A stretch of 64,000 nt of DNA from an uncultured Actinomycetes bacterium. GTDB taxonomy: Bacteria; Actinomycetota; Actinomycetes; Streptosporangiales; Streptosporangiaceae. The translations under genes were made by a program, and so were the position numbers. Position 1 is the stretch's first letter; every line of letters starts with the position of its first letter. The stretch spans positions 50 through 64,049 of the forward strand of contig CAVRMX010000040.1 of assembly GCA_963722275.1 (NCBI GenBank), read 5' to 3'. This document shows positions 48,476-61,560 of the stretch, piece after piece. Under the pieces are notes generated by a model. It made no database searches and was not told the DNA's origin. It saw nothing but the letters and a program-made list of their open reading frames with translations.

Positions 48476-49882
48476 TCAGAGGGCGGAACTTCCGCCGTCG
48501 CCGGCGGCGCGGCTGGGCGCGGTCTCGAAGGCCGGCGTCAGGCCGTCGCCGGTGTCGTCGGCCGGGCTCTCGCCAGCCTGGGTCTCGCCTGCTGGCGTCT
48601 CGCCAGCCTGGGTCTCGCCCGCTGGCGTCTCGCCAGCCTGGGTCTCGCCTGCTGGCGTCTCGCTGGCGAGGTCGTCGAGCGGCGCGGCGTCCGAGCCGTA
48701 GGCGCCGCCCGGCAGGACCGTGGCCGCGGCGGCCGGATCAGGCGTGAAGAGCATCCACGCGCACGAGACGATCAGCGCGACGAGGAACCCGCAGTAGACC
48801 CAGAAGGCCAGCGTCATGCCGGAGCTGATCGTGAGCCCGAGCTGCGAGGCTTGCGCGGACGAGATGCCGAACTGGGCGGGCGAGGGCGTCTGGCCGGCCT
48901 GGACGAGAGCCGAGATGGCCTGGGCCGCCATCGGGATCGCGGCCCCGGCGAGCAGCACCGCCCCGTGCCGGACCGGGCGCCAGAGCGCGGCCACCACGAC
49001 CACCGCCGCGAACGCGACCATCACGGCGACGTCCCCGGCGATGACCAGTCCCGGGTTGGCGAAGGCGTTACCCAAGGTCACCGACTGCGACTGCCCGGCG
49101 GACGTGCGCAGCGTGAAGGTGTCCCAGGCCGGCGCGAACGCGGCGGCCACCCCCAGGCCGGCCAGCACCAGCATCACCATGGGACCGAGCGCGGATCCGC
49201 GCGGCCGCGCCAGCGGGCCCGGGTGACCCGGCTGGGCGTCCGGAGCCGGCGCGCTGGCCGGGCGGACACCGAACGCGACCACCGACCCCGCGGCGCAGGC
49301 CAGCCAGCCGAGGAGGGCGAGCACGAGCCCGGCGCCGCCGGCGTTCCCCGCCCCCGCGATGGCCGTGCCTGCGTCCGCGAAGAACAGGCCGAACGTAACC
49401 ACGCTCAGCCCCAGGCCGAGCAGCGCGCCGAGCCGCAGGCGGGCGCCGCCGAGGAGGATGAGCACGGCGCTCGCGGTCCAGACGGCCAGGTAGATGGCGT
49501 GCGGGACGAGCAGTTCGGCCTGCTGGGCGAGGCTGGAACCGCCGAGGTACGACGGGAAGAGCCCGGCGACCCCCAGCGCGACCCCGAGGCCGAGCAGCGC
49601 CGCCGCGGCGATCGCGGCGGCCTTCCCGCTGAGCGCCGGACGGCTCACCCGCGCGGCGCCGGAGCCAGCCGGCGCGGTGTGCCGGCCCACCGGGACGATC
49701 GTGCCAGGCGCCTCGATGCTCGCGAACCGGGTCCACGCGGCCGACCAGCCCTCGGGGGTCTCTGGCCACCGCTCGAGCGGCTGGGACCGCGGCGCTCCGG
49801 ACGTCCAGATGCCGTAGAAGTCCCAGCCCCGCCCGATCTCGTACTTGGCTCCGCGGTACGTGATGGTCACTTTGTCAAACAC
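48476..49882 (-). CDS. integral membrane protein with a small N-terminal soluble domain and an acidic repeat tail
   Basis: GTG 49882 with AGGAAAGG 8 nt upstream. VFDKVTITYRGAKYEIGRGWDFYGIW..., then about 10 hydrophobic segments and C-terminal (ETPAG/ETQAG)x6. The upstream 245 codons of track ORF 48476..50617 are rejected. Confidence 0.6.
   Translation of the reverse strand: MFDKVTITYRGAKYEIGRGWDFYGIWTSGAPRSQPLERWPETPEGWSAAWTRFASIEAPGTIVPVGRHTAPAGSGAARVSRPALSGKAAAIAAAALLGLGVALGVAGLFPSYLGGSSLAQQAELLVPHAIYLAVWTASAVLILLGGARLRLGALLGLGLSVVTFGLFFADAGTAIAGAGNAGGAGLVLALLGWLACAAGSVVAFGVRPASAPAPDAQPGHPGPLARPRGSALGPMVMLVLAGLGVAAAFAPAWDTFTLRTSAGQSQSVTLGNAFANPGLVIAGDVAVMVAFAAVVVVAALWRPVRHGAVLLAGAAIPMAAQAISALVQAGQTPSPAQFGISSAQASQLGLTISSGMTLAFWVYCGFLVALIVSCAWMLFTPDPAAAATVLPGGAYGSDAAPLDDLASETPAGETQAGETPAGETQAGETPAGETQAGESPADDTGDGLTPAFETAPSRAAGDGGSSAL
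48568..48661. repeat. 15/30-bp tandem repeat array (tctcgccagcctggg / tctcgcctgctggcg)
   Basis: Three near-identical 30-mers make six 15-mers. They encode ETPAGETQAG x3 on the minus strand. Confidence 0.9.
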
Positions 49883-50004
49883 GGTCCAAGCCTTTCCTGC
49901 CGCTGCCACAGCCGCCCCTCGCGTCCTGTCCGAACCTAGCCGAAACCATATGCAGCCGGCCTGTAGGCCGGCTGTGCGGTCTCTCAAGCATTCCTGACTC
50001 TTTG

Positions 50005-50746
50005 ATCCGCGGCTGCAAGCCACCTGGGCGGCCGCCAATGGGACGCGGTGATCGAGGTTTCCTGGCAGCCCGGCCTCGTCCGCGGTGCCCTGGCCGCCCT
50101 GGGCGAGCGGGCGGCGCACTGGACGTACGTCTCCTCGGGCAGCGTCTACGCGTCCCACGCGGCCATCGGCGCCGACGAGTCCGCGCCGCTGCTCGCCCCG
50201 GACGACCGCGACGAGGCGGATGCCGAGCGGTACGGCGAGGCGAAGGTGGCGTGCGAGCAGGCATCGGCCGCGGCCGCCGGCGACCGCCTGCTGATCGCGC
50301 GCGCCGGGCTGATCGGCGGCCCGGGCGATCACACCGGCCGATCCGGCTACTGGGCCGCGCGCGCGGCGCGCGACCCGCGCGGGCCGATGCTCGTGCGGCC
50401 GTCCCGGACATGCCGACGCAGGTGGTGGACGTCCGCGATTGCCTGGATGCGCGCAGGCCGGGGCGGGCACACCGGGCCGGTCGGCGGAGCGTGGCTGCTC
50501 GGCCAGGCGTCGCGAGTACTGGGCCCGGAATCGCTGCCGATGTGGGTGGCCGAACCGGGCTGGGAGGGCTTTTCCGCGCGCAGCGGCCAGGCCGCGGCGG
50601 CCGCCGGACTGCGGCACCGGCCGCGATCCGAGCTCCAGGCCGACGTGCTGGGGTGGGAACGCGCGCAGGGACTTGACCGGCCGCGACCGGCGGGCCTGAG
50701 CGCGGGACGCGAACGCGAGCTGCTAGCCGCGCTCGGTACGGCTTAA
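50005..50746 (+). pseudogene. remnant of an NAD-dependent epimerase/dehydratase-family gene (N-terminal Rossmann part missing, at least 3 frame breaks)
   Basis: HLGGRQW | [20 protein letters not shown]...YVSSGSVYA. The frame shifts at the GGGG run 50039-42. The [12 protein letters not shown] segment lies in a second frame (about 50400-50445). The C-terminal part (...[22 protein letters not shown]) is back in the 50048 frame. No GxxGxxG region is present. Confidence 0.6.
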
Positions 50747-50762: not shown

Positions 50763-50807
50763 GTCAGCATATGTTGACGAGATGCTGGTGTCAGCATATG
50801 CTGACAC
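50763..50807 (+). promoter_or_regulatory. promoter with two palindromic operators for HTH/Clp_N module 1
   Basis: gtcagcatatgttgac (50763-78) contains the -35 TTGACG (50774-79). The 20-bp perfect palindrome gtgtcagcatatgctgacac (50788-807) contains the -10 TATGCT (50797-802). The -35/-10 spacer is 17 nt. The ATG 50810 lies 7 nt after the -10, implying a leaderless transcript. Confidence 0.6.
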
Positions 50808-50809
50808 AC

Positions 50810-51031
50810 ATGGAACCAGTACTTGAAATCGCCGAGGGCGCCACCAGCAACGACCCCGATGTCGGGCTACGCGCGGTGGCGGCCCTGCGCGCGCTGGCCG
50901 AGCGGCTGGAGGTGCTGCAGGTGCAGACCGCACGCGAGCTCGGCTGGTCGTGGCAGGACATCGCGGAACGCCTCGGCGTGACCAAGCAGACCGTGCACCG
51001 CAAGTACGGCCGGCGGATCGGGAGGCGATGA
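50810..51031 (+). CDS. small helix-turn-helix protein (sigma-70 region-4-like), module 1
   Basis: Translation MEPVLEIAEG...GLRAVAALRALAERLEVLQVQTARELGWSWQDIAERLGVTKQTVHRKYGRR. Paralogue of 56901..57140. The track start 50771 lies inside the operator. Confidence 0.7.
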   Translation: MEPVLEIAEGATSNDPDVGLRAVAALRALAERLEVLQVQTARELGWSWQDIAERLGVTKQTVHRKYGRRIGRR

Positions 51032-51741
51032 TGTTCGAGCGCTTCAGCCAGGACGCTCGCACCGTTGTCAGGCAAGCCGTCGAGCACGCCCGTCGGCTCG
51101 GCCACCGCTACGTGGGCGGCGAGCACATCCTGCTCGCCGCCGTGTCCACCAGCCAGCCGGCCAGCGCGGTCATGCGGGCGCACGGCGTCACGCCGGAGCT
51201 GGTCGAGGAGGAGATAGTCCGCCGGGTCGGGCTGGGCGCCGGAGCAGGCCTGTTCGGCGGCCTGGACCGGGACGCGCTGGCCACGATCGGGATCGACCTG
51301 GATGCGGTGCGGGCCAGGATCGAGGCGTCCTTCGGCCCGCAGGCGCTCAGCAACGCCGCCCAGGCGGCGTACCGGGGCCGGCGCAGCCGCCCGGGCCCGC
51401 GGCCGCCCCGGATCGTGCGCAACTGGCGGCGCAGGCGCCGGGCCCGGCGGGCCATGGCACACGCGCCCGGTCCCCGGCCTCCCGCGGCCGCCGGCCGCTA
51501 CCGCGCGGCCGGCCCGCCGCCCGGCGGGCATATCCCGTTCACCCCGGCCGCCAAGAAGATCCTCGAGCTCACCCTGCGCGAGTCGCTCGCCATGAACGAC
51601 TCGCACATCGGCGTCGAGCACATCGCGCTCGCCCTCACCACGGTCGCGAGCGGGCTGGTGCCCCCCATCGTGTCGGCGGCGGGCGCGACGGCACCGGGGC
51701 TGCGCGCCGCCATCCTCGACCGGTACCGGCAGGCGAGCTGA
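51031..51741 (+). CDS. Clp amino-terminal (Clp_N repeat) domain protein, module 1
   Basis: MFERFSQDARTVVRQAVEHARRLGHRYVGGEHILLA..., with a second repeat FTPAAKKILELTLRESLAMNDSHIGVEHIALAL. The two repeats are separated by an Arg-rich insert. GGGAGG lies 5 nt upstream, and the start is coupled to the HTH stop. Confidence 0.8.
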   Translation: MFERFSQDARTVVRQAVEHARRLGHRYVGGEHILLAAVSTSQPASAVMRAHGVTPELVEEEIVRRVGLGAGAGLFGGLDRDALATIGIDLDAVRARIEASFGPQALSNAAQAAYRGRRSRPGPRPPRIVRNWRRRRRARRAMAHAPGPRPPAAAGRYRAAGPPPGGHIPFTPAAKKILELTLRESLAMNDSHIGVEHIALALTTVASGLVPPIVSAAGATAPGLRAAILDRYRQAS

Positions 51742-51889
51742 CCCGGGAACCGCTCACGGACCGCGATACAGGCTGGTGAGCAGCCCGACATCGCGCCGCC
51801 AATGGTCGGGGGCCACGGACATGCCGGCACAGGTCTTCATGTCGAAGGGCATCATGCTCCTGGCCCGGACACCGCCGACGACGGCCGTG

Positions 51890-52873
51890 TTAGTGGGCGC
51901 GGCCACCGTCGGTAATCCCGTTCCCGGACGAGCAGGTCCTGGTCGTCCTGTTCATTTGCGTCGAGTTCCGGTCCGCCCGAACGGTGAGGGCCACGGCCGT
52001 GCCGATGAGGGCCGCGCCCGCCATCCCGGCCGCGCTCAGCCGCTCGCCGAGCAGCAGGGCCGCGAGGATGGCGCCGGTCAGCGGCTCGAGCAGGGCCAGC
52101 AGGGCGGCCGTGCCGGCGGCGGCCGAGCGCAGGCCGCGGAAGAACAGCGTGTAGGCCACGGCGGTCGGGCCGGTGCCCAGCGCGACCAGCAGGCCGATGG
52201 CCGCGGGGCCAGGCCTGAAGCCGATGCCCCCCGCCAGCTGCGCCAGCGGCAGCAGCGCCAGGCCGCCGATGGTGAAGCCGAAGCCGGTCACGGTGAGGTC
52301 GTCGAGTCCGGGCACCGGGCGGGAGCCGGTCAGGGTGACCGCGGCGAAGCCCGCCGCGGCCAGCACGGCCATGCCCGCGCTGGCCAGGACCGCGGTTTCG
52401 GGGAATCCGGACGGCAGGCCCACGAGCAAGCCGAGGCCGGTGACCGCCAGGCCGGTGGTCGCGACCGCGGACCGGCCGACCTGCCGCCCGGCCAGCCGGT
52501 CGGCGCCCAGCACGATGACCGGGGCGGCACCGATCGCGACCAGAGTGGCCAGCGGCACCGAGGTCAGCGACACGGCCGTGAAGTAGCAGCTCTGGTAGAA
52601 CGCGGCCAGCAGGCCGATGACGGTGATCCGGGTCCAGGCCGCCCGGCCCGTCGGCCAGGGCCTGCGGGTCACGATGAGAAGGGCGACGATCAGCACGCCG
52701 CCGGCGGTAAGCCGGCAGGCGGCGACGGCAATCGCCGACAGGCCGGCCACCCGGCCGAGCAGGCTGCCGGTGAGGCCGCCCGTCCCCCACAGCAAGCCGG
52801 ATATCACTAGGCAGAGAAGGCCAGTACCGGGCCGGCGGCGGGCGGCCGCGGACCCCGTGGTGAACGCACGCAT
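51890..52873 (-). CDS. EamA/DMT-family transporter
   Basis: Start taken at MRAFTTGSAAARRR... (52873). Two homologous halves of about five hydrophobic helices each, typical of EamA. Confidence 0.75.
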   Translation of the reverse strand: MRAFTTGSAAARRRPGTGLLCLVISGLLWGTGGLTGSLLGRVAGLSAIAVAACRLTAGGVLIVALLIVTRRPWPTGRAAWTRITVIGLLAAFYQSCYFTAVSLTSVPLATLVAIGAAPVIVLGADRLAGRQVGRSAVATTGLAVTGLGLLVGLPSGFPETAVLASAGMAVLAAAGFAAVTLTGSRPVPGLDDLTVTGFGFTIGGLALLPLAQLAGGIGFRPGPAAIGLLVALGTGPTAVAYTLFFRGLRSAAAGTAALLALLEPLTGAILAALLLGERLSAAGMAGAALIGTAVALTVRADRNSTQMNRTTRTCSSGNGITDGGRAH

Positions 52874-53400
52874 CGGGAAACGCTCCTGCGACGAGAAGGG
52901 AATGGTCGCGGAAGCGGGGCGCACCGAAATCACCCAGGCGGCAGCACAAGATGGGTGCTCGCCGGGCAGGGGGAGCGCGTCAGCTCAGCCCACGGTGCTC
53001 AGCCGGCCGTACTCGATGGCTGGCTCTGTACTCGACGCACCGGGCCCGACGCGCGGACTATCGCCCCGCTAGGAGCGGGGCGGCGGGGTGATGGGGAAAC
53101 ACCGGTGCATGACGATCATGCTACCCGGGCGTGAGCCGGGCGCGCGAACGAGTTCTGGTCACTCCCCGCCCGGAGCCGGATCCGGCGCGGGCGGGCACCG
53201 GCCAGCGGCTGCCGGCTGCCGAGACGCCGGGACAGCAGGTCAAGGGGGCCGCCGCCTTCCAGCCCGAGCAGCTCCCAGGACCGCGCGATGCCGATGCCGA
53301 ACAGGAGGTACAGGAACGTCACGCTCATGCTGTCCAGGCTGCTCTGCGTGCGGAGCAGGATCCCGCTGCACCGGGCGGGCCAGCGTAGGATCACCGTGAC

Positions 53401-53933
53401 ATGCTGCTGACGTTCGGGCACGGGACCGCCACGGCCGAGCGGATGACCGAACTGCTCCGGGGGCCGGCGTGGCCGTGCTCATCGACGTCAGGACGGCTCC
53501 CGGCAGCCGCCGTCATCCGCACGTGGTGCGCGCCGAGCTGGAACGCTGGCTGCCCGAAGCCGGAATCTTCTACCGCTGGGACAAGCGGCTCGGCGGCTTC
53601 AGGAAGGCCGCCCCTGACTCACCGGACACCGCCTGGCGTGAGGACATGTTCCGGGGTTACGCCGCGCACATGCGGACGGACGGCTTCCTGGCCGCGGCGG
53701 ACGAGGCGCTCGCCCAGGCTCGCATCGAGCCGACGGTGGTGATGTGCGCCGAGAGCCTGTGGTGGCGCTGCCACCGCCGGCTGCTCGCCGACTTCGTGGT
53801 GGCGGCACGCGGCGTGCCGGTCCGGCATCTCCTGCACGACGGGCGGCTCGAGGAGCATCGTCTCTCCCCAGGGCTGCGGCGGCGCGACGACGGCCTGCTC
53901 GTCTACGACGCGGGCCAGCCGACCCTGCTCTGA
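53401..53933 (+). pseudogene. DUF488-family protein; frame break in the G5 run 53459-53463
   Basis: MLLTFGHGTATAERMTELLRG is in the 53401 frame. It continues as AGVAVLIDVRTAPGSRRHPHV...VMCAESLWWRCHRRLLADF in the 53469 frame. One additional G would restore the frame. Confidence 0.7.
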
Positions 53934-53946
53934 GCGAGCCGGCGGG

Positions 53947-54708
53947 TCAGCCCAGGTACCTGCCGAAGCCGCTGGTCTGCCAGGTCGCGCCGGCCGCGGT
54001 GACGGCGAACGCCTCGTAGCCGTCCAGGCCCTCTACCCACTCGCAGGCGGCGGATCCCATCGCGAACGCCGCCGTGGCGTAGGCGTCCGTCTCGGCCAGC
54101 CGTGCCCCGACCACCGTGACGCTGGCCAGGCCGGCCGGGGGCTGCCCGGTGTAAGGGTCGATGATATGAGCCCCTCGCTCGGCGACGCCCGACGTGGCCA
54201 CGGCGAAGTCCCGGCCAGCTACCACGAGCGCCAGCCTGCCCGGGTGCAGCGGGTCGGCGATTCCTACCCGCCACACCCGGTCGCCGGTGCACTGGATGTC
54301 GCCGCCGCCGTTGACGCTGTGCTCGGCCGAGCCCGCCGCGGTGAGGATGGCGGCCGCCCGCTCGATCGCCCATCCCTTCACGTACCCGGAGGGGTCGAAC
54401 GTGCCGCCGGGCGTGGTGGTGAAGTACCCGCCGCTCTGCGCGCTGATGGCCGCGCACGCCTCGAGCACCTCGGCGAGTTCGGGCGCGCAGTCCGTCAGCG
54501 GCACCGAACCGCGGCCGAACCGGGCGACGTCGCTGTCGTCCCGGTACGGCGAGAAGGTGGCGTCCACCCAGTGCAGCCAGCGCACCGCCTGGCCGAGAGA
54601 TCCGTCACCGTGCGGCTCCCCGGCGCGGGCGGGCACGTCGAAGGAGACGACCGTGCCCATCACGTGCTCGGCGTGCCTGCGCCGCCCGGGCGCCCCGCCG
54701 TCCGTCAT
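53947..54708 (-). CDS. apbE: FAD:protein FMN transferase (ApbE family)
   Basis: 253 aa. MGTVVSFDV...FSPYRDDSDV...DPSGYVKGWAIERAA...VATSG..ERG.HIIDP is the ApbE pattern. Confidence 0.85.
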   Translation of the reverse strand: MTDGGAPGRRRHAEHVMGTVVSFDVPARAGEPHGDGSLGQAVRWLHWVDATFSPYRDDSDVARFGRGSVPLTDCAPELAEVLEACAAISAQSGGYFTTTPGGTFDPSGYVKGWAIERAAAILTAAGSAEHSVNGGGDIQCTGDRVWRVGIADPLHPGRLALVVAGRDFAVATSGVAERGAHIIDPYTGQPPAGLASVTVVGARLAETDAYATAAFAMGSAACEWVEGLDGYEAFAVTAAGATWQTSGFGRYLG

Positions 54709-54714
54709 GCGGGC

Positions 54715-55203
54715 TCAGCCGCGCTTGTCCAGTGCGCTCTGCAGCGACTGGATGTAGCCGCCGCTGGTGTAGGTGGCGCCGGACACCGCGTCGATCTTGC
54801 CATTCTGCGACGTCAGCGTCTCGCTGATCAGCTTGGGGAAAGCCATCGCGCCGATCTGGATGTCGTGGAGGGTGTTGGCCGGCTGCACCAGGACCGCGAC
54901 CTTGACGATCTTGCTGTTCCGCTCGATCAGCTGGATCTGCACCGGCCCGTAGGCGGTGTTGGCCGCCTTCCCGTCGACCGCGGTCTCGCCCGCGGGCAGG
55001 TTCTTGGCCAGCGACCCCTGCGGGAATTCTCCGGGCACGGTCGTAGTCTGGCCGCCCGACGAGGAAGAGGAGGACGACGACGAGCTGCCGCCCGACCCGC
55101 CGGTCGTGGCCGCCACCGGGACGGACGGGACGTGCGACTTGAACGACAGCAGGGCCACCAGGCCGGCGATGGTGCCGGTGACGGCCAGGATAACCCGGCG
55201 CAT
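54715..55203 (-). CDS. secreted/membrane-anchored FMN-binding domain protein
   Basis: N-terminal TM/signal segment, a Ser/Gly linker, and an FMN_bind motif with the flavinylation site SGATYTSGGY. Confidence 0.8.
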   Translation of the reverse strand: MRRVILAVTGTIAGLVALLSFKSHVPSVPVAATTGGSGGSSSSSSSSSSGGQTTTVPGEFPQGSLAKNLPAGETAVDGKAANTAYGPVQIQLIERNSKIVKVAVLVQPANTLHDIQIGAMAFPKLISETLTSQNGKIDAVSGATYTSGGYIQSLQSALDKRG

Positions 55204-55220
55204 TTCGCCGATCCTCTCCC

Positions 55221-56675
55221 TCAGAACTCGAACGACTCGACGTGGATGGACTGCCCGGGCACCCCGGCGGCGCGCAGCGCGCGGACCGCGGAGGCGGTCA
55301 TGCCGGCCGGCCCGCAGACGTAGGCGTCCTGCTGGTCCAGGCCGGGCACCAGCGACCGCAGCACCCGGGGAGACAGCGGGTCGCCGCCGATCTCGGCCCG
55401 GGAGCCGACCAGGTAGTGCACGGTCGCGCCGCGCGCGGCCGCGATGGCGTCCAGCTCGTCGCGGAACACGAGGTCCCGCTCGCTGCTGGCGCGGTAGATC
55501 AAGGTGACGTGCCCGGGCAGCGTCGCGAAGATGGCCCGCAGCGGGGTGATGCCGACCCCGCCGGCCAGCAGCAGCACCCCGCGGCCGGAATCGGCGGGGG
55601 TGAACGCGCCGTAGGGACCCTCGGCGAAGACGCGGGTCCCCGGCTGGAGCCGCGCCAGCGCCTGGCTGTGGTCACCCAGGTTCTTCACGGTGATCCGCAG
55701 CACGTCGGACCCCGGCGCGGCGGAGAGCGAGAACGGGTGCGAGGACCACCACAGCGATCTGGTCAGGAACCGCCAGCGGAAGAACTGCCCGGGCTCGGCG
55801 TCCAGCTCGTCGAACCGCCCGCCGCCGATGTAGATCGAGATGACTCCCGGCGCCTCCGCCTTCACCCCGAGAACCTCGAAGCGGTGCCTGCGGTACGCGA
55901 GCAGCGGGACCGCGACGCGGTACCACAGCACCAGGACCAGCACCGTCAGGTACATCGCGGACCACCAGAACCGCGCGGCCAGATTGCTGACGAACGCAGC
56001 GCCATCGGCCAGCTGGTGGCTGAACGCCAGGGCGATCGCGAGGTAGGTGTACAGGTGCAGGAAATACCACGTCTCGTAGCGGACCCGGCGCCGGGCGGCG
56101 CGCATCGAGACGATGCCGATGCCGAGCAGCAGGAAACCGGCCACGGTCGCCATCAGCACGTCCGGATACTGAGTGAGCAGCGTCGCGGTCTCGCTCACCA
56201 CGCTGGCGTGCGCGGTGACCGCGTAGCCCCACACGATGAGCAGGCCGTGCGCGACCACCAGGCTGACGATGTACCGCCCGCCCATAGCGTGCCAGCGAGC
56301 TAGCTTGTCGCTGCCCAGGCCTCGCTCGAGCGGCGGCAGCCGCGACATCAGCGCGACCAGGACCACCACGCCGTACCCGCACAGCAGGCCTAGGACCTCG
56401 CCCGCGCCGGTCAGCCAGCCGCCGAGCCCGTGGACGCCGGGCGTGCTGTGCCACCACAGGGCGACGACCACCAGCGCGCCCGCGATGATGACCGCGAGCG
56501 CGCCGCGCGCGCCGACACGGGCCGGACGGCTCCCGGGCCGCACGGGCGCCGGTCTCGCCTGCGGACGGCGGGACGGACCCGGACGGGGCGACGGCGCCTG
56601 CCGTGGCCCGGGGTACGTCTCCGCACCGGCATGGCGAGCCGGGCCAGATCGCCTGGCAACGCTGGTCACCCGCAC
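55221..56675 (-). CDS. ferric-reductase-like transmembrane protein fused to an FAD/NAD(P)-binding reductase domain
   Basis: N-terminal heme-type 6-TM region with conserved His residues, then an FNR-like domain (RWRF...HPFSLS, LLAGGVGITP, YVCGP). Confidence 0.8.
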   Translation of the reverse strand: MRVTSVARRSGPARHAGAETYPGPRQAPSPRPGPSRRPQARPAPVRPGSRPARVGARGALAVIIAGALVVVALWWHSTPGVHGLGGWLTGAGEVLGLLCGYGVVVLVALMSRLPPLERGLGSDKLARWHAMGGRYIVSLVVAHGLLIVWGYAVTAHASVVSETATLLTQYPDVLMATVAGFLLLGIGIVSMRAARRRVRYETWYFLHLYTYLAIALAFSHQLADGAAFVSNLAARFWWSAMYLTVLVLVLWYRVAVPLLAYRRHRFEVLGVKAEAPGVISIYIGGGRFDELDAEPGQFFRWRFLTRSLWWSSHPFSLSAAPGSDVLRITVKNLGDHSQALARLQPGTRVFAEGPYGAFTPADSGRGVLLLAGGVGITPLRAIFATLPGHVTLIYRASSERDLVFRDELDAIAAARGATVHYLVGSRAEIGGDPLSPRVLRSLVPGLDQQDAYVCGPAGMTASAVRALRAAGVPGQSIHVESFEF

Positions 56676-56853
56676 CTCCCGTTAGGACTGCCTAGCTGGA
56701 ATCGTATGCTCAGCCGAGCAGGGTGGTCCCGTTCTGGATCCCGACGGGCACGGTCAGACCCGGCCCTCCTCCCCTAGTTATGACTACGTAGCGCGATCTT
56801 GCACGGTTCAGCCAGCTCTCGTAAGCGCTTCGTAATCGGGCCAGCCGCCCCGC

Positions 56854-56897
56854 TGTCAACTCAGGTTGACACCGGGCGGTTGTCAACGTAAATTGAC
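56854..56897 (+). promoter_or_regulatory. promoter with two palindromic operators for HTH/Clp_N module 2
   Basis: tgtcaactcaggttgaca (56854-71) contains the -35 TTGACA (56866-71). gtcaacgtaaattgac (56882-97) contains the -10 TAAATT (56889-94). The -35/-10 spacer is 17 nt. The ATG 56901 lies 6 nt after the -10. Operator centres are 27 bp apart, as in module 1. Confidence 0.6.
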
Positions 56898-56900
56898 GCC

Positions 56901-57140
56901 ATGGACAACGCACCCGCCCTGGCGGCCGCGGCCGACAGCTCAGACCCGCGCACCGGGCTCCGGGCCGTCGCCGCCCTCCGCAGGCTGCTGGAGCAGCTCG
57001 AGGCGCTCCAGGTGGACAACGCACGGCAACATGGCTGGTCCTGGCAGGAGATCGCGGCGATCCTCGGCGTGTCCAGGCAGGCCGTCCACAAGAAGCACGC
57101 CCGCCGGGCGGACGGCAGCCGTCCCGCCCGCGTTCGCTGA
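56901..57140 (+). CDS. small helix-turn-helix protein (sigma-70 region-4-like), module 2
   Basis: Translation ...DPRTGLRAVAALRRLLEQLEALQVDNARQHGWSWQEIAAILGVSRQAVHKKHARR. Paralogue of 50810..51031. Confidence 0.7.
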   Translation: MDNAPALAAAADSSDPRTGLRAVAALRRLLEQLEALQVDNARQHGWSWQEIAAILGVSRQAVHKKHARRADGSRPARVR

Positions 57141-57158
57141 CCTGAGGGGATACCGACG

Positions 57159-57752
57159 ATGTTCGAGCGATTCACCGGCAAGGCCAGGACCGTGGTGATC
57201 CTGGCCAGGGCCAAGGCCGCCGAGCGCGGCGACCAGATCCGCCCGGTGTACATGCTGCACGCGCTGGCGTCCGGAGACGGCGTGGCCGCCCGGGCGCTGG
57301 GCGGCCTGGGCATCGACCCGGACGCGGTCGAGCGCCAGCTGGACCGAACCGCGCCGCTGGGCAATCCGCTCGGCGCCGGAACGGCCAGCGGCGACGCCGA
57401 GGCACTGGCCGCGATCGGCATCGACCTTGATGAGATCAAGCGCAAGGTCGAGGAGGGCTTCGGGCCCGGCGCGCTCGAGCGGGCGCCGCTGACCTCACAG
57501 GACCCGCTGAACTGGACCGGGCGGATATCGCTGACCCGGGAGGCGAAGCAGTCGCTGGGGCTCGCCCTCAAGGAAGCCCGGGCCCTGCACCACAGTTACA
57601 TCGGCACCGAGCACCTGCTGCTCGGCCTGCTCGGCGCGGCTGAGCGCAACCCGCGCGGGGACTTTACCCCAGACACCCTCCGCGACCTGGGCATCGATCC
57701 CGTCCAGGCACGGCAGCGCGTCCTCGACGAGCTGCGGCACGCCTCCGCGTAG
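57159..57752 (+). CDS. Clp amino-terminal (Clp_N repeat) domain protein, module 2
   Basis: MFERFTGKARTVVILARAKAAERGDQIRPVYMLHAL..., with a second repeat LTREAKQSLGLALKEARALHHSYIGTEHLLLGLL. Confidence 0.8.
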   Translation: MFERFTGKARTVVILARAKAAERGDQIRPVYMLHALASGDGVAARALGGLGIDPDAVERQLDRTAPLGNPLGAGTASGDAEALAAIGIDLDEIKRKVEEGFGPGALERAPLTSQDPLNWTGRISLTREAKQSLGLALKEARALHHSYIGTEHLLLGLLGAAERNPRGDFTPDTLRDLGIDPVQARQRVLDELRHASA

Positions 57753-57837
57753 CCTGCCCCTGCGGACATACTTACGTTCTAGTTAGATCTTACTAACCGT
57801 TAGGACAGGACACACTGACCTTACGGAGAGTATCTAG

Positions 57838-58380
57838 ATGAATACACAGAGCCATAACCTGTCATTGGGGATATCACGGATAGGATATGGTCAAATGCTC
57901 AGAGTAAGCGACGTTTGGGAGAGAGCGCTCCACACACCCGCCACGGCCGTCGCCAGACCAGGAGACGTCATCGTCATCCGCTCCGGCGGCGGCTATGACG
58001 GCAAGCAGGGCATGAGCCTGGCTACCGGCGTGAGCAGCCGGTCCGCGGGCGCCCAGGCCCTGTGCCTGCACCTGGTGACGATTCCTCCCGGGACCCGCGG
58101 CGTGCCGCACGTCCACAGCGGGCACGAGTCCGCCATCTACACGGTCAGCGGAGAAACCGAGGTGTGGCACGGCGAGGGCCTGCTGCAGCGCACCGTGGTC
58201 CAGGCCGGCGACTTCATGTACGTACCGCCGGGCACCCCGCATCTCCCGGTGAACCGCAGCGACGTGATGACGGTGGCCGTGGTCGCCCGTACCGACCCCC
58301 AGGAGCAGGAGAGCGTGGTTACCATGAGCCTGCCTCCGCACCTCGCTGACCTGGAAGCCTTCCCCGTCGCCAGCCAGTAA
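57838..58380 (+). CDS. cupin-domain protein
   Basis: Cupin motifs GVPHVHSGHESAIYTVSGE and GDFMYVPPGTPHLPVN. The 5' region (57765-57910) has unusually low GC, so the start could instead be the in-frame ATG at 57895. Confidence 0.7.
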   Translation: MNTQSHNLSLGISRIGYGQMLRVSDVWERALHTPATAVARPGDVIVIRSGGGYDGKQGMSLATGVSSRSAGAQALCLHLVTIPPGTRGVPHVHSGHESAIYTVSGETEVWHGEGLLQRTVVQAGDFMYVPPGTPHLPVNRSDVMTVAVVARTDPQEQESVVTMSLPPHLADLEAFPVASQ

Positions 58381-58556: not shown

Positions 58557-61379
58557 CTAGGTAAATGCCTCCGGCGGCGGGCACGCGCAGATCAGGTTCC
58601 TGTCGCCGTAGGCCTGGTCGACGCGCCGCACCGGCGGCCAGTACTTGGCCCGGCGGTCCAGGCCGGCCGGGTAGGCGGCCTCCTCGGCGTCGTACGGGTG
58701 CTTCCACTCCCCCGCGATCAGCATCTCCGCGGTGTGCGGGGCGTTCTTCAGCGGGTTGTCGTGCGCGTCGTACTCGCCGGAAGCCACCTGGGCGATCTCC
58801 GCCCGGATCGCGATCATCGCCTCGCAGAACCGGTCGAGCTCGGCCAGGCTCTCGCTCTCGGTGGGCTCGATCATGAACGTGCCCGCGACCGGGAACAACA
58901 TCGTCGGTGCGTGGAAGCCGTAGTCGATCAGCCGCTTGGCCACGTCCTCCACGGTGATACCGGTCTGGCGGGCCAGTGGCCGCAGGTCGATGACGCACTC
59001 GTGCGCGACCAGCTCGTTCCGCCCGGTGTACAGCACCGGGTAGTGCGGCGCCAGCCGCCGGGCCACGTAGTTGGCGGACAGCACCGCGACCTGGGTCGCC
59101 TGCCGGAGCCCGGCCGCCCCCATCATCGCGACGTAGGCCCAGGAGATGGGCAGGATGCCGGCCGACCCGTAGGGCGCGGCCGCAACCGGGCCCGTGCCGC
59201 CGCGGCCCGGCAGGAAGTCCGCCAGGTGCGCGCGGACCGCGACAGGGCCGACGCCGGGGCCGCCGCCGCCGTGCGGGATGCAGAACGTCTTGTGCAGGTT
59301 CAGATGCGACACGTCGGCGCCGAACGACGGCAGGGTGGCCACCCCGACCAGCGCGTTGAGGTTCGCACCGTCGATGTACACCTGGCCGCCCGCCGCATGC
59401 ACGGCCGCGCAGATGTCGGTGACGTTCTGCTCGTAGACGCCGGCCGTGGACGGGTAGGTGATCATGATCGCCGCGACGTGCCCCTCGTGCGCCGCCAGCT
59501 TGCCCTGCAGGTCGCCGAGGTCGACGGCACCGCCGGCGTCGCATTTGACCACCGCGACGCGCAGCCCGGCCAGCACCGCGCTGGCCGCGTTGGTGCCGTG
59601 CGCCGACTCCGGGATCAGGCAGACGTCGCGGCCGTCCTCGCCGCGCGAGGCGTGGTACCCGCGGATGGCGAGCAGGCCGGCCAGCTCGCCCTGGGAGCCG
59701 GCGTTCGGCTGCACCGAGACCGCGTCGTAGCCGGTGAGCCGGGCCAGCCGGAGCTCGAGCGACTCGATCAGCTCGAGGTAGCCGCCCGCCTGGGCGGCCG
59801 GCGCGAACGGGTGCATCCCGGCGAACTCCGGCCAGCTGACCGGCTCCATCTCTGCCGTCGCGTTCAGCTTCATCGTGCACGAGCCGAGCGGGATCATCGA
59901 CCGGTCGAGGGCGATGTCGAAGTCCGCCAGCCGCCGCAGGTAGCGCAGCATCGCGGTCTCGCTGCGGTGCTCGCGGAACACCGGGTGGGTGAGGAACTCC
60001 GAGGTGCGCCGCAGCGACCCGGGCAGCACGTCGGGCGAACCGTCCGATAGCTGCACGTCAGCGGGGTTTTCCAGCCAGCAGATGGCGGCCACGAGCTCGC
60101 GCAGCTGCTCGTCGGTGGTGGTCTCGTCGCAGCTGACCTGGACCGCGTCATCGGACGCCAGGTAGAGGTTGTACCCGGCGGCGTGCGCACGTTCCAGGGC
60201 GGCCGCCGCTTCATGGCGACCGCCGTCAAAGGCAATCCGGATCGTGTCGAAGAAGTCACCCGCGCTCGTTCGGTGCCCGAAATCGCGCAGCGTCGCGGAC
60301 AGGACCGCGGCGCTGCGGTGAGCGGCCCGGGCGATGGCGGCCAGCCCGTCAGGACCGTGGTAAGCGGCATACATGGCCGCGGTCACGGCCAGCAGGACCT
60401 GCGCGGTGCAGATGTTGCTCGTCGCCTTCTCCCGGCGGATGTGCTGCTCGCGGGCCTGCAGCGCGAGCCGGTAGGCGGGCTGGCCGTCGGCGTCCACCGA
60501 CACCCCGACCAGCCGGCCCGGCAGCTGGCGCTTCAGCGCGTCGCTGACCGCGATGTAGCCGGCGTGCGGCCCGCCGAACCACAGCGGCACGCCGAACCGC
60601 TGGGTCGAGCCCACCGCGACGTCCGCGCCTGCCTCGCCGGGCGGCTGGAGCAGGGTCAGCGCCAGCAGGTCGGCGGCCACCGCGGCCAGCGCCCCCGCGG
60701 CGTGCGCCGCCTCGATCAGCGGCGCGGGGTCGCGGATGACGCCGGAGGCCCCGGGGAACTGCAGCAGCACGCCGAACAAGTCGCTCTGCCGGGCGATGGC
60801 CTCGGCGGTCACCGGCTCGACGACCAGGTGGATGCCGAGCGGCTCGGCCCGGGTGCGCAGCACGGCCAGCGTCTGCGGCAGGCAGTCGGCGTCAGCCAGG
60901 AACACGTGGCCCTTCTTCGTGGCCCGCCGGGCCAGCGTCATCGCCTCGGCGGCCGCGGTCGCCTCGTCGAGCAGTGACGCGCCGGCCCACGGCAGCCCGG
61001 TCAGGTCGGCGACCATGGTCTGGAAGTTCAGCAGCGCCTCGAGCCTGCCCTGCGAGATCTCCGGCTGGTACGGGGTGTACGCGGTGTACCAGGCCGGGTT
61101 CTCAAGCACGTTGCGGCGGATCACGGCCGGGGTGATCGTGTCGTAGTAGCCCAGGCCGATCATCGAGGTCAGCACCTGGTTCCGGCCGGCCATCCGGCGC
61201 AGTTCGGCCAGCGCCTGGGTCTCGGTCAGCGGATCGGGCAGACGCAGGTCAGCGGGGGGTGTCCCCTCCGGCAGGGCGGCGGCGGTGAGCTCGTCGAGCG
61301 AGGCGTACCCCAGGCTGTCGAGCATGTGCCGCTGTTCGGCGGGCGCCGGGCCTATGTGGCGAATGGCGAAGTCTGTCAA
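58557..61379 (-). CDS. gcvP: glycine dehydrogenase (aminomethyl-transferring), glycine cleavage system P protein
   Basis: Colinear with single-chain GcvP. Start moved to TTG 61379 (GGGAGG 5 nt upstream, giving [11 protein letters not shown]...), because the track start at 61430 lies inside the riboswitch. Confidence 0.95.
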
Positions 61380-61390
61380 TGGAGCCTCCC

Positions 61391-61560
61391 CGGAACGAGC
61401 GCGGTCGCTGGCTGGCTCCCCGTCTGTCACGGCGCCCAGATGGCAACACCCGCTCCAGAGATGCCTGTTCCGTCCGGTTCGTGTGCCTGAGAGGTTCCGG
61501 GGATGTTGCCCCTTCGGCGCCCGCGGATTTACGCGGAGACTCTCCCGGCCGGTGTCATCG
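61391..61560 (-). promoter_or_regulatory. glycine riboswitch (one canonical aptamer plus a degenerate second half)
   Basis: The minus strand reads ...CCGGGAGAGtctccgcgtaaatccgcgggCGCCGAAGGGGCAAcatccccggaaCCTCTCAGGCAcacgaaccGGAC..., then CTCTGGAGcggg.... It matches the GGAGAG / CGCCGAAGGGGCAA / CTCAGGCA...GGAC consensus I know for this riboswitch class, in the expected place upstream of gcvP. Confidence 0.8.

Follow-up and report, generated by a model that had tools for sequence, protein, structure and literature searches.

We analysed a 64,000-nucleotide stretch of DNA from an uncultured actinomycete of the family Streptosporangiaceae (GenBank assembly GCA_963722275.1, contig CAVRMX010000040.1, positions 50 to 64,049 of the forward strand; hereafter the window), and focused on two short gene pairs, modules 1 and 2, each of which encodes a small helix-turn-helix (HTH) protein followed by a protein consisting of Clp_N sequence only. 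The comparisons suggest that each module is probably a split, two-gene counterpart of the actinobacterial ClpC2 system that represses itself and is equipped with a ligand-responsive Clp_N protein. ClpC2 (Rv2667 / MSMEG_2792) is a protein of ~250 amino acids (aa); its C-terminal half consists of a Clp_N domain, a homologue of the ClpC1 receptor domain (Taylor et al. 2023, PMC10030653). It represses its own promoter at the pseudopalindrome CGTCAAC-n5-GTTGACG, located 1-2 nt upstream of the open reading frame (ORF); most actinobacteria have a second operator upstream, the two clpC2 sites overlap the -35 and -10 elements, and the transcript was inferred to be leaderless (PMC10030653). Cyclomarin A frees the repressor, whereupon the protein accumulates and acts as a sponge (PMC10030653). 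According to a preprint (Anderson et al. 2026), ClpC2 oligomers come off the DNA in the presence of phospho-arginine or rufomycin, and two ClpC2 operators are bound ~24-fold tighter than one (PMC13345244). A first, sequence-only reading of the window had described the modules as a conserved but uncharacterised cassette. The conservation stood, whereas the cassette, as the homology below argues, is a split-gene paralogue of the characterised ClpC2, whose promoter logic was published in 2023, and so a variant of a known regulatory design.

The division into two modules of an HTH gene and a Clp_N-only gene was borne out by the ORFs, by Pfam and by a hidden Markov model (HMM) scan of all window ORFs, which matched these two modules only and revealed no third (Table 1). 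Both small proteins matched Pfam HTH_23 above the cut-off, with HTH models covering residues 37-68, and scored 25.5 and 24.5 bits against Sigma70_r4_2, for which the cut-off is 25.7. Clp_N was matched twice in each partner protein (E = 1.7e-23 and 6.9e-20). The two domains do not share one ~250-aa polypeptide as they do in ClpC2; each module has two ORFs. In module 2, the HTH stop and the Clp_N start are separated by an 18-nt gap containing the ribosome-binding site GAGGGG. The first ORF of module 1 has a formal alternative start, ATG 50771, inside the operator; its start was set at 50810 by comparison with relatives, in which the class B consensus ATGGAACC places the start codon 3-4 nt after the operator.

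Upstream of each HTH gene, two palindromes overlie the -35 element and the -10 element, with 27 bp between their centres in both modules and a 17-nt promoter spacer, and the ATG follows the -10 after 6-7 nt; all of these features had been proposed from the sequence and were confirmed at their coordinates, as was the 20-bp perfect palindrome at the second site of module 1. Both modules do have two palindromes, but the module 2 pair is imperfect, with 14/18 and 12/18 positions self-complementary. With one mismatch allowed, the operator pattern gave 6 matches in the window against 0.74 expected from shuffles, and the two matches outside the modules were GC-rich with one mismatch each. A promoter scan over 8.5 kb returned 3 promoter-like sites against 0.2 expected, the third being the mirror image of the module 1 palindromes.

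To assess conservation, we surveyed one genome per species and found at least 582 species-representative genomes with confirmed HTH relatives, of which the best 80 were examined; these came from Streptosporangiaceae, Amycolatopsis, Streptomyces, Micromonospora, Prauserella, Jiangella and Kitasatospora and included many metagenome-assembled genomes. Two 16-bp operators with starts 27-28 bp apart were found in 80/80 genome loci, at -46 to -48 and -19 to -20 relative to the start codon, which lay 3-4 nt past the proximal operator in all 80 and was ATG, or GTG in three. The same dual-operator layout was present in 75/75 class B metagenome loci, this count being restricted to loci with enough upstream DNA. 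The motif pair is thus conserved upstream of orthologous modules, as had been anticipated. Across 82 modules (the 80 genome loci plus the two window modules), the -35 was TTGACA in 68 and TTGACG in 12, and the -10 matched TAnnnT in 81; the two were separated by 17 nt in 48 modules and by 18 nt in 34, the start codon followed the -10 after 6 nt in 66 modules and after 7 nt in 16, and the palindrome spacer was N4 in all 82 split modules. Since this leaves too little space for a Shine-Dalgarno sequence, the case for a leaderless mRNA is as strong as sequence alone permits. Information profiles computed from the unique upstream regions of class A (80) and class B (70) gave ~2 bits for each operator-arm position and ~0 in the flanks and the inter-operator DNA, indicating that the conservation reflects selection on the sites and not recent common descent.

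The partner gene is nearly as constant. A Clp_N ORF beginning MFERF was found downstream in ~75/80 genome loci, mostly overlapping the HTH gene or only a few nt away, and the loci lacking it were accounted for by contig ends, frameshifts or clear secondary loss. In one locus syntenic with module 2 (L007, 3001-3445), the HTH gene and operators are intact while most of the Clp_N gene is deleted, and in another (L040, 2968-3359) an intact HTH gene and operators precede a Clp_N gene cut to a 79-aa remnant, suggesting that the putative HTH repressor circuit can persist after loss of its partner. The HTH family comprised 3,576 clusters at 50% identity (E <= 1e-3), with very few exceptions free-standing and 60-130 aa long, and nearly all of the 150 best representatives were stand-alone proteins of 60-200 aa. 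Fused HTH-Clp_N proteins were considered among these representatives and rejected, because the few long matches (P0232, P0133) look like frameshift or gene-calling artefacts. A tblastn search for the HTH gene in plasmid and phage collections gave no match.

The loci fall into two classes. Class A, with module 2 and 78 genome loci, has the recognition helix LGVS[RK]QAVHKK and the half-site GTCAAC; its operators read GTCAAC-N4-GTTGAC (distal) and GTCAAC-sTAr-rTTGAC (proximal), and its Clp_N partners have a median length of 187 aa. Class B, with module 1, L040 and 75/75 metagenome loci, has the helix LGV[TS]KQT[VI]HRK and the half-site GTCAGC. Its distal operator, GTCAGC-ATAT-GTTGAC, keeps the right arm as the -35, and the site at the module 1 position recurs with the same sequence in the 75 metagenome loci; its proximal operator, GTCAGC-ATAT-GCTGAC, gives the -10 TATGCT. 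Class B partners are longer (median 233 aa, with a median 69-aa Arg-rich insert), and their start overlaps the HTH end by 1-4 nt in 42/42 partners found, as ATGA in 38/42. The consensus GTCA(A/G)C-N4-G(T/C)TGAC drawn from the window earlier pools these two distinct classes. Helix type and half-site agreed in all 78 class A genome loci and all 75 class B metagenome loci, one class B metagenome helix having G in place of the second T. Recognition helix and half-site therefore differ together between the classes, and this pairing points to the HTH protein, rather than the Clp_N domain, as the DNA reader. With different operators and helices, the two window modules should not cross-regulate, and the N4 spacer should likewise set split modules apart from any N5-type ClpC2.

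To place the HTH protein among known structures, we built a profile from 51 diverse homologues and compared it with the PDB. The best solved-structure match by sequence was RelI (9SDC, E = 7.2e-8), the HTH antitoxin (Rv2664) of RelS-RelI, which acts by binding its partner protein (NAR 2026); the N-terminal domain of Mycobacterium tuberculosis ClpC2 was also matched (8ADA, E = 1.4e-4). The profile was needed for this, as a single-sequence phmmer search of the PDB with the module 2 HTH protein did not recover ClpC2. Against full-length M. tuberculosis ClpC2, hhalign aligned HTH residues 22-70 with ClpC2 residues 37-85 (96% probability, E = 3.4e-9). The D46-R57 salt bridge of the ClpC2 dimer corresponds to E31/R42 in the HTH protein, residues kept in 47/51 and 45/51 homologues, respectively. 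An AlphaFold2 (AF2) model of the HTH protein (predicted local distance difference test score, pLDDT, 88) contained four helices, a long helix being followed by a helix-turn-helix at 48-70 with pLDDT above 90. The crystallised ClpC2 fragment in 8ADA ends at residue 72, directly before the predicted recognition helix TKQAAQKRF, and the HTH could therefore not be visible in that structure. The Clp_N partners, for their part, matched ClpC1 N-terminal domain structures in the PDB at E = 1e-16 to 1e-23 and also ClpC2 C-terminal domain structures, being closer by sequence to the former.

In line with a role as decoy or sensor, the Clp_N partners largely keep the ligand pocket of ClpC1: F2 is present in 100%, F80 in 77% of class A and 95% of class B partners, and E89 in 68% and 86%, respectively. 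The module 1 partner has all three residues, with F80 in the context IPF(80)TP, whereas in the module 2 partner F80L and E89G have replaced two of them; the two modules may thus see different ligands. Repeat 1 of the module 2 protein is degenerate, and repeat 2 retains IGTEHLLLGL. In the module 1 protein, a ~55-aa insert, Arg/Pro-rich and probably disordered (RGRRSRPGPRPPRIVRNWRRRRRARRAMAH...), separates the two Clp repeats. The basic insert of class B could serve as a phospho-arginine acceptor, a DNA contact or a degron.

From these elements we propose the following mechanism. A housekeeping-type promoter (TTGACA, 17-18 nt, TAnnnT) would initiate transcription on the A of the HTH start codon, or directly beside it, and produce a leaderless bicistronic mRNA, from which Clp_N would be translated by coupling, through the ATGA overlap or across a short gap with its own ribosome-binding site. 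The HTH protein would dimerise like the ClpC2 N-terminal domain, its recognition helix reading the two palindromes, and one dimer on the -35 together with another on the -10 and start site would exclude RNA polymerase and keep expression low. Clp_N would mimic the receptor domain of the unfoldase ClpC1 and, once accumulated, would absorb phospho-arginine-tagged or damaged proteins and cyclic-peptide antibiotics. It probably associates non-covalently with the HTH protein, and ligand would break this assembly and lift repression. Autorepression, which the sequence-only reading had also proposed along with a leaderless mRNA, has been shown experimentally for fused ClpC2, whose transcript is taken to be leaderless (PMC10030653, PMC13345244), and the geometry is kept in the 82 modules; for the window modules, leaderless transcription and HTH binding to the palindromes are predictions. 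The contact between HTH protein and Clp_N and the induction by ligand are suggested by analogy, and the feedback of Clp_N on the HTH protein through a ligand-broken complex is the weakest step, put forward because the fused form exists, RelI binds its partner and induction of ClpC3 has been reported. An earlier suggestion that the Clp_N proteins act as decoys agrees, again by analogy, with the published sponge role of ClpC2 and ClpC3.

ClpC3 also offers a probable counterpart in Mycobacterium smegmatis. The gene MSMEG_3761 has been named clpC3, and its product is described in reviews of Hoi et al. 2023 as a small 'caretaker' related to the ClpC1 N-terminal domain that is induced by, and binds, cyclomarin and ecumicin; induction by temperature stress has been reported also. 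In 2017, Perrone et al. reported that a 16-bp motif that includes a 6-bp palindrome occurs twice before MSMEG_3760, at positions -47 and -19 counted from its ATG; this gene directly precedes clpC3. The local TetR protein does not bind the motif, which they left unexplained (PMC5660060). These positions match the -46 to -48 and -19 to -20 of the split-module operators, and on that match we take MSMEG_3760 and ClpC3 as the M. smegmatis member of the family; judged from motif geometry only, the pair is very probably the counterpart of the window modules. The operator sequence itself is absent from the primer and supplement text of PMC5660060, and no named mycobacterial protein turned up when homologues were sought starting from the Clp_N partner of a Mycobacteriales member. 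In the literature, in which Hoi et al. 2023 was represented by reviews, we found nothing that connects MSMEG_3760 with the regulation of ClpC3 or with the N-terminal domain of ClpC2.

Several observations weigh against the interpretation of the modules as split, ligand-responsive ClpC2 systems. Neither ClpC2 domain alone represses (PMC13345244, preprint), and a stand-alone HTH protein may therefore be insufficient for repression; Taylor et al. placed the DNA-contacting helix of ClpC2 in its Clp_N domain, at R185/R189 (PMC10030653). The 27 bp between operator centres correspond to ~2.6 helical turns, so two dimers would not lie on one face of the DNA. The pairing of helix and operator amounts to essentially one evolutionary split, between classes A and B, plus the ClpC2 branch, and a few class A Streptomyces and Jiangella loci change position 5 in one of the half-sites with an unchanged helix. 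When the AF2 model was compared with the PDB by Foldseek, no structure reached E <= 0.001 and neither 8ADA nor 9SDC was recovered, the top weak neighbours being the DeoR DNA-binding domain and sigma region 4. Lacking F80 and E89, the Clp_N protein of module 2 may be unable to bind ligands of the cyclomarin type. In M. smegmatis, separate transcripts have been reported for MSMEG_3760 and MSMEG_3761 (PMC5660060). At the level of the organism, finally, we infer the start site, the DNA binding and the induction from sequence.

Among the alternatives, the one that survives best is plain negative autoregulation without sensing, in which the HTH protein alone holds Clp_N low and Clp_N is a constitutive competitor or adaptor of ClpC1. 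It fits the placement of the two functions on separate polypeptides in essentially all loci, and it fits L007 and L040, which keep the HTH gene and operators after loss or decay of Clp_N. We nevertheless consider it unlikely, because the fused homologue ClpC2 is ligand-responsive, the HTH relative RelI acts through partner binding, and ClpC3 of M. smegmatis is, according to reviews, induced by cyclomarin and ecumicin and also reported as induced by temperature stress; moreover, the tight coupling and near-universal co-occurrence of the two genes suggest joint action in a fixed proportion.

The question of which protein reads the DNA bears on a further alternative, in which Clp_N is the reader or co-reader and the HTH-like protein mainly serves dimerisation or as a scaffold. 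ClpC2 carrying R185A/R189A in its Clp_N domain binds operator DNA less well, and the ClpC2 N-terminal fragment was seen as a dimerising four-helix bundle (PMC10030653); the failure of either ClpC2 domain to repress alone also speaks for this view. However, that crystal fragment stops short of the recognition helix, the Pfam HTH models and the confidently modelled helix-turn-helix of the AF2 structure both fall within the small protein, and it is the recognition helix, not the region equivalent to R93 of Clp_N, that changes with the half-site. The RelI paper likewise names the ClpC2 region an HTH (NAR 2026), and the arginines mutated by Taylor et al. sit in an LxLREA motif common to all Clp_N domains. 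Reading of the operator by Clp_N therefore appears improbable to us.

A toxin-antitoxin-like arrangement, with the HTH protein as antitoxin and autorepressor and Clp_N as a growth-inhibiting blocker of ClpC1, would be consistent with a small autoregulating HTH gene that precedes a second gene overlapping it, with the palindromic operators and with the presence of several paralogues in a genome, and the closest solved relative by sequence is indeed the RelI antitoxin (E = 7e-8). However, the Clp_N-only proteins ClpC2 and ClpC3 are tolerated at several-hundred-fold induction and are protective, Pfam detected no toxin domain in the partner, which is Clp_N only, and the modules belong to the core chromosome, with no copies in the plasmid and phage collections. 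RelSI, in addition, has the toxin gene first and no upstream inverted repeats were found there (NAR 2026), and we regard this arrangement as highly improbable. Self-resistance genes of a maker of a ClpC1-targeting product, beside its biosynthetic cluster, are scarcely tenable: decoy target copies are a common strategy and many module-carrying actinomycetes are prolific producers, but its presence in at least 582 species-representative genomes puts the module far above any plausible number of producers, and a location in a biosynthetic cluster was rejected on the Pfam content of the window, which is ordinary core chromosome with no nonribosomal peptide synthetase genes.

With the split ClpC2-like circuit as the preferred reading, a broader proposal can be made that we hold to be possible but doubtful: the modules could form a large family, so far unrecognised as such, of modular decoy-sensor circuits, in which the HTH protein reads the DNA, paralogues are insulated from one another by helix and half-site and by N4 or N5 spacing, and each Clp_N is tuned to a different ligand of the ClpC1 receptor domain. 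If true, this would revise the current ClpC2 model, since the HTH and not the Clp_N domain would read the DNA, and one genome would hold several independent alarms for proteotoxic signals or antibiotics. New elements appear to be the existence of a very large family with split genes, its N4 spacing and its two helix-operator classes, together with the argument for the HTH as DNA reader and the identification of MSMEG_3760 as a probable clpC3 regulator. ClpC1 is a leading antitubercular target, and ClpC2 and ClpC3 blunt ClpC1-directed drugs. The split cassettes provide a natural separation of the DNA-binding and ligand-binding halves, which makes it straightforward to ask which half recognises the operator and by what route ligand binding reaches the repressor, and the helix-operator classes together with N4/N5 spacing are ready-made specificity variants; the class differences suggest how several circuits coexist in one genome without cross-talk. 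The comparison would also explain the orphan palindromic motif of 2017 upstream of MSMEG_3760 and points to that protein as the likely regulator of clpC3.

The window also holds genes for a sulfite reductase, UvrC, WhiA, the glycine dehydrogenase GcvP with a glycine riboswitch, an EamA transporter, ApbE and a ferric-reductase-like protein; the riboswitch, upstream of gcvP, is ordinary. An 80-85-nt non-coding block between the module 2 operators and the divergent ferric-reductase-like gene is conserved in 10 Streptosporangiales loci (L001, L002, L005-L012) and carries the distant inverted repeat GTTACG...CGTAAT. As a structured RNA it found no Rfam match, and RNAalifold gave ~-6 kcal/mol on either strand with almost no covariation; it is more likely a protein-binding or promoter region. 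An AT-rich stretch running from the module 2 Clp_N gene into the start of a cupin gene is conserved in L001, L006, L008 and partly L012, with no Rfam match, and the cupin ORF may have its annotated ATG within a conserved leader. A 10-bp direct repeat stands on either side of module 2; its interpretation as an insertion scar was rejected, as it is absent from 12/12 close relatives and is probably due to chance. A long ORF on the opposite strand encodes a multi-pass membrane protein-like product with no Pfam match.

Table 1. Coordinates of the two modules and of other features in the window
Feature	Position	Strand	Class	Description
Membrane protein-like ORF	48476-50617	-		up to 713 aa; tandem ETPAGETQAG repeat near C-terminus
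Module 1 distal operator	50763-50778		B	GTCAGCATATGTTGAC; right arm is the -35 TTGACG (50774-50779)
Module 1 promoter	50774-50802			TTGACG, 17 nt, TATGCT; then 7 nt to ATG
Module 1 perfect palindrome	50788-50807			20 bp, around the proximal core
Module 1 proximal operator	50790-50805			core GTCAGCATATGCTGAC; contains the -10 TATGCT (50797-50802)
Module 1 HTH gene	50810-51031	+	B	73 aa; recognition helix LGVTKQTVHRK; probable leaderless ATG at 50810
Module 1 Clp_N-only gene	51028-51741	+		237 aa; two Clp repeats; start overlaps HTH stop as ATGA
Module 1 Clp_N insert	51340-51530			Arg/Pro-rich
Direct repeat, first copy	56679-56688			CCGTTAGGAC
Conserved non-coding block	56762-56838			CCCCTAGTTAyGrsTACGTmrCGC...GCAyGGTTCA...GTAAGCGCTTCGTAATCG
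Module 2 distal operator	56855-56870		A	GTCAACTCAGGTTGAC; right arm is the -35 TTGACA (56866-56871)
Module 2 promoter	56866-56894			TTGACA, 17 nt, TAAATT; then 6 nt to ATG
Module 2 proximal operator	56882-56897			GTCAACGTAAATTGAC; contains the -10 TAAATT (56889-56894)
Module 2 HTH gene	56901-57140	+	A	79 aa; recognition helix LGVSRQAVHKK; ClpC2 N-terminal domain homologue; probable leaderless start
Module 2 Clp_N-only gene	57159-57752	+		197 aa; two Clp_N matches in Pfam
AT-rich stretch	57753-57900			...ACTTACGGAGAGTATCTAGATGAATACACAGAGCCATAACCTGTCATTGGGGATATCACGGATAGGATATGG...
Direct repeat, second copy	57797-57806			CCGTTAGGAC
Cupin ORF, annotated ATG	57838			
gcvP	58557-61430	-		
Glycine riboswitch	61465-61557	-		Rfam RF00504, 62.7 bits

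Besides ClpC3, three known systems bear comparison with the modules. Sigma-70 region 4.2 ranks with the best Pfam matches of the HTH proteins, at scores just below the cut-off, and the half-site GTTGAC(A) contains the -35 consensus TTGACA; unlike sigma-70, they have no other sigma regions and would bind palindromes as dimers, and we treat this as a resemblance only. Recognition of the -35 by the HTH repressor may resemble that by sigma. With RelI, the window proteins share the same actinomycete-specific HTH family and the pairing of a small protein with the product of an adjacent gene. They differ in that the partner of RelI is a RelE-like RNase toxin encoded upstream, whereas Clp_N is encoded downstream here, and in that no inverted repeats were reported upstream of RelSI (NAR 2026). 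The RelI paper also calls the ClpC2 region an HTH and gives the family as 124 proteins (NAR 2026); it does not mention the HTH + Clp_N branch, which reaches 3,576 clusters here, so that the ClpC2/RelI HTH family is much larger than recently reported. By locus numbering, the RelI locus (Rv2663-Rv2664) lies three genes from clpC2 (Rv2667).

The comparison with ClpC2 is the closest. The upstream DNA of M. tuberculosis clpC2, read directly, is CGTCAAC-CTACT-GTTGACG tc ATG, and that of M. interjectum clpC2 has two N5 sites 29 bp apart, followed by ggc ATG. Unlike ClpC2, the window modules encode the two domains as separate proteins coupled in translation; each palindrome has an N4 spacer here, as opposed to N5 in both of these clpC2 promoters; the distance between operator centres is 27-28 bp, compared with 29 bp in M. 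interjectum, whose clpC2 promoter was the only one read that has two operators; the class B operator is GTCAGC-ATAT-GCTGAC; and the partners carry a conserved EALxxIGIDLDxV...FGPxAL segment followed by a basic linker between the Clp repeats. Like ClpC2, however, the modules combine a homologous HTH-type N-terminal domain with a homologous Clp_N domain, class A uses the same half-sites, GTCAAC/GTTGAC, and the operators lie over the -35 element and the -10 element, with the clpC2 start codon 2-4 nt past the proximal operator, implying a leaderless mRNA there as well.

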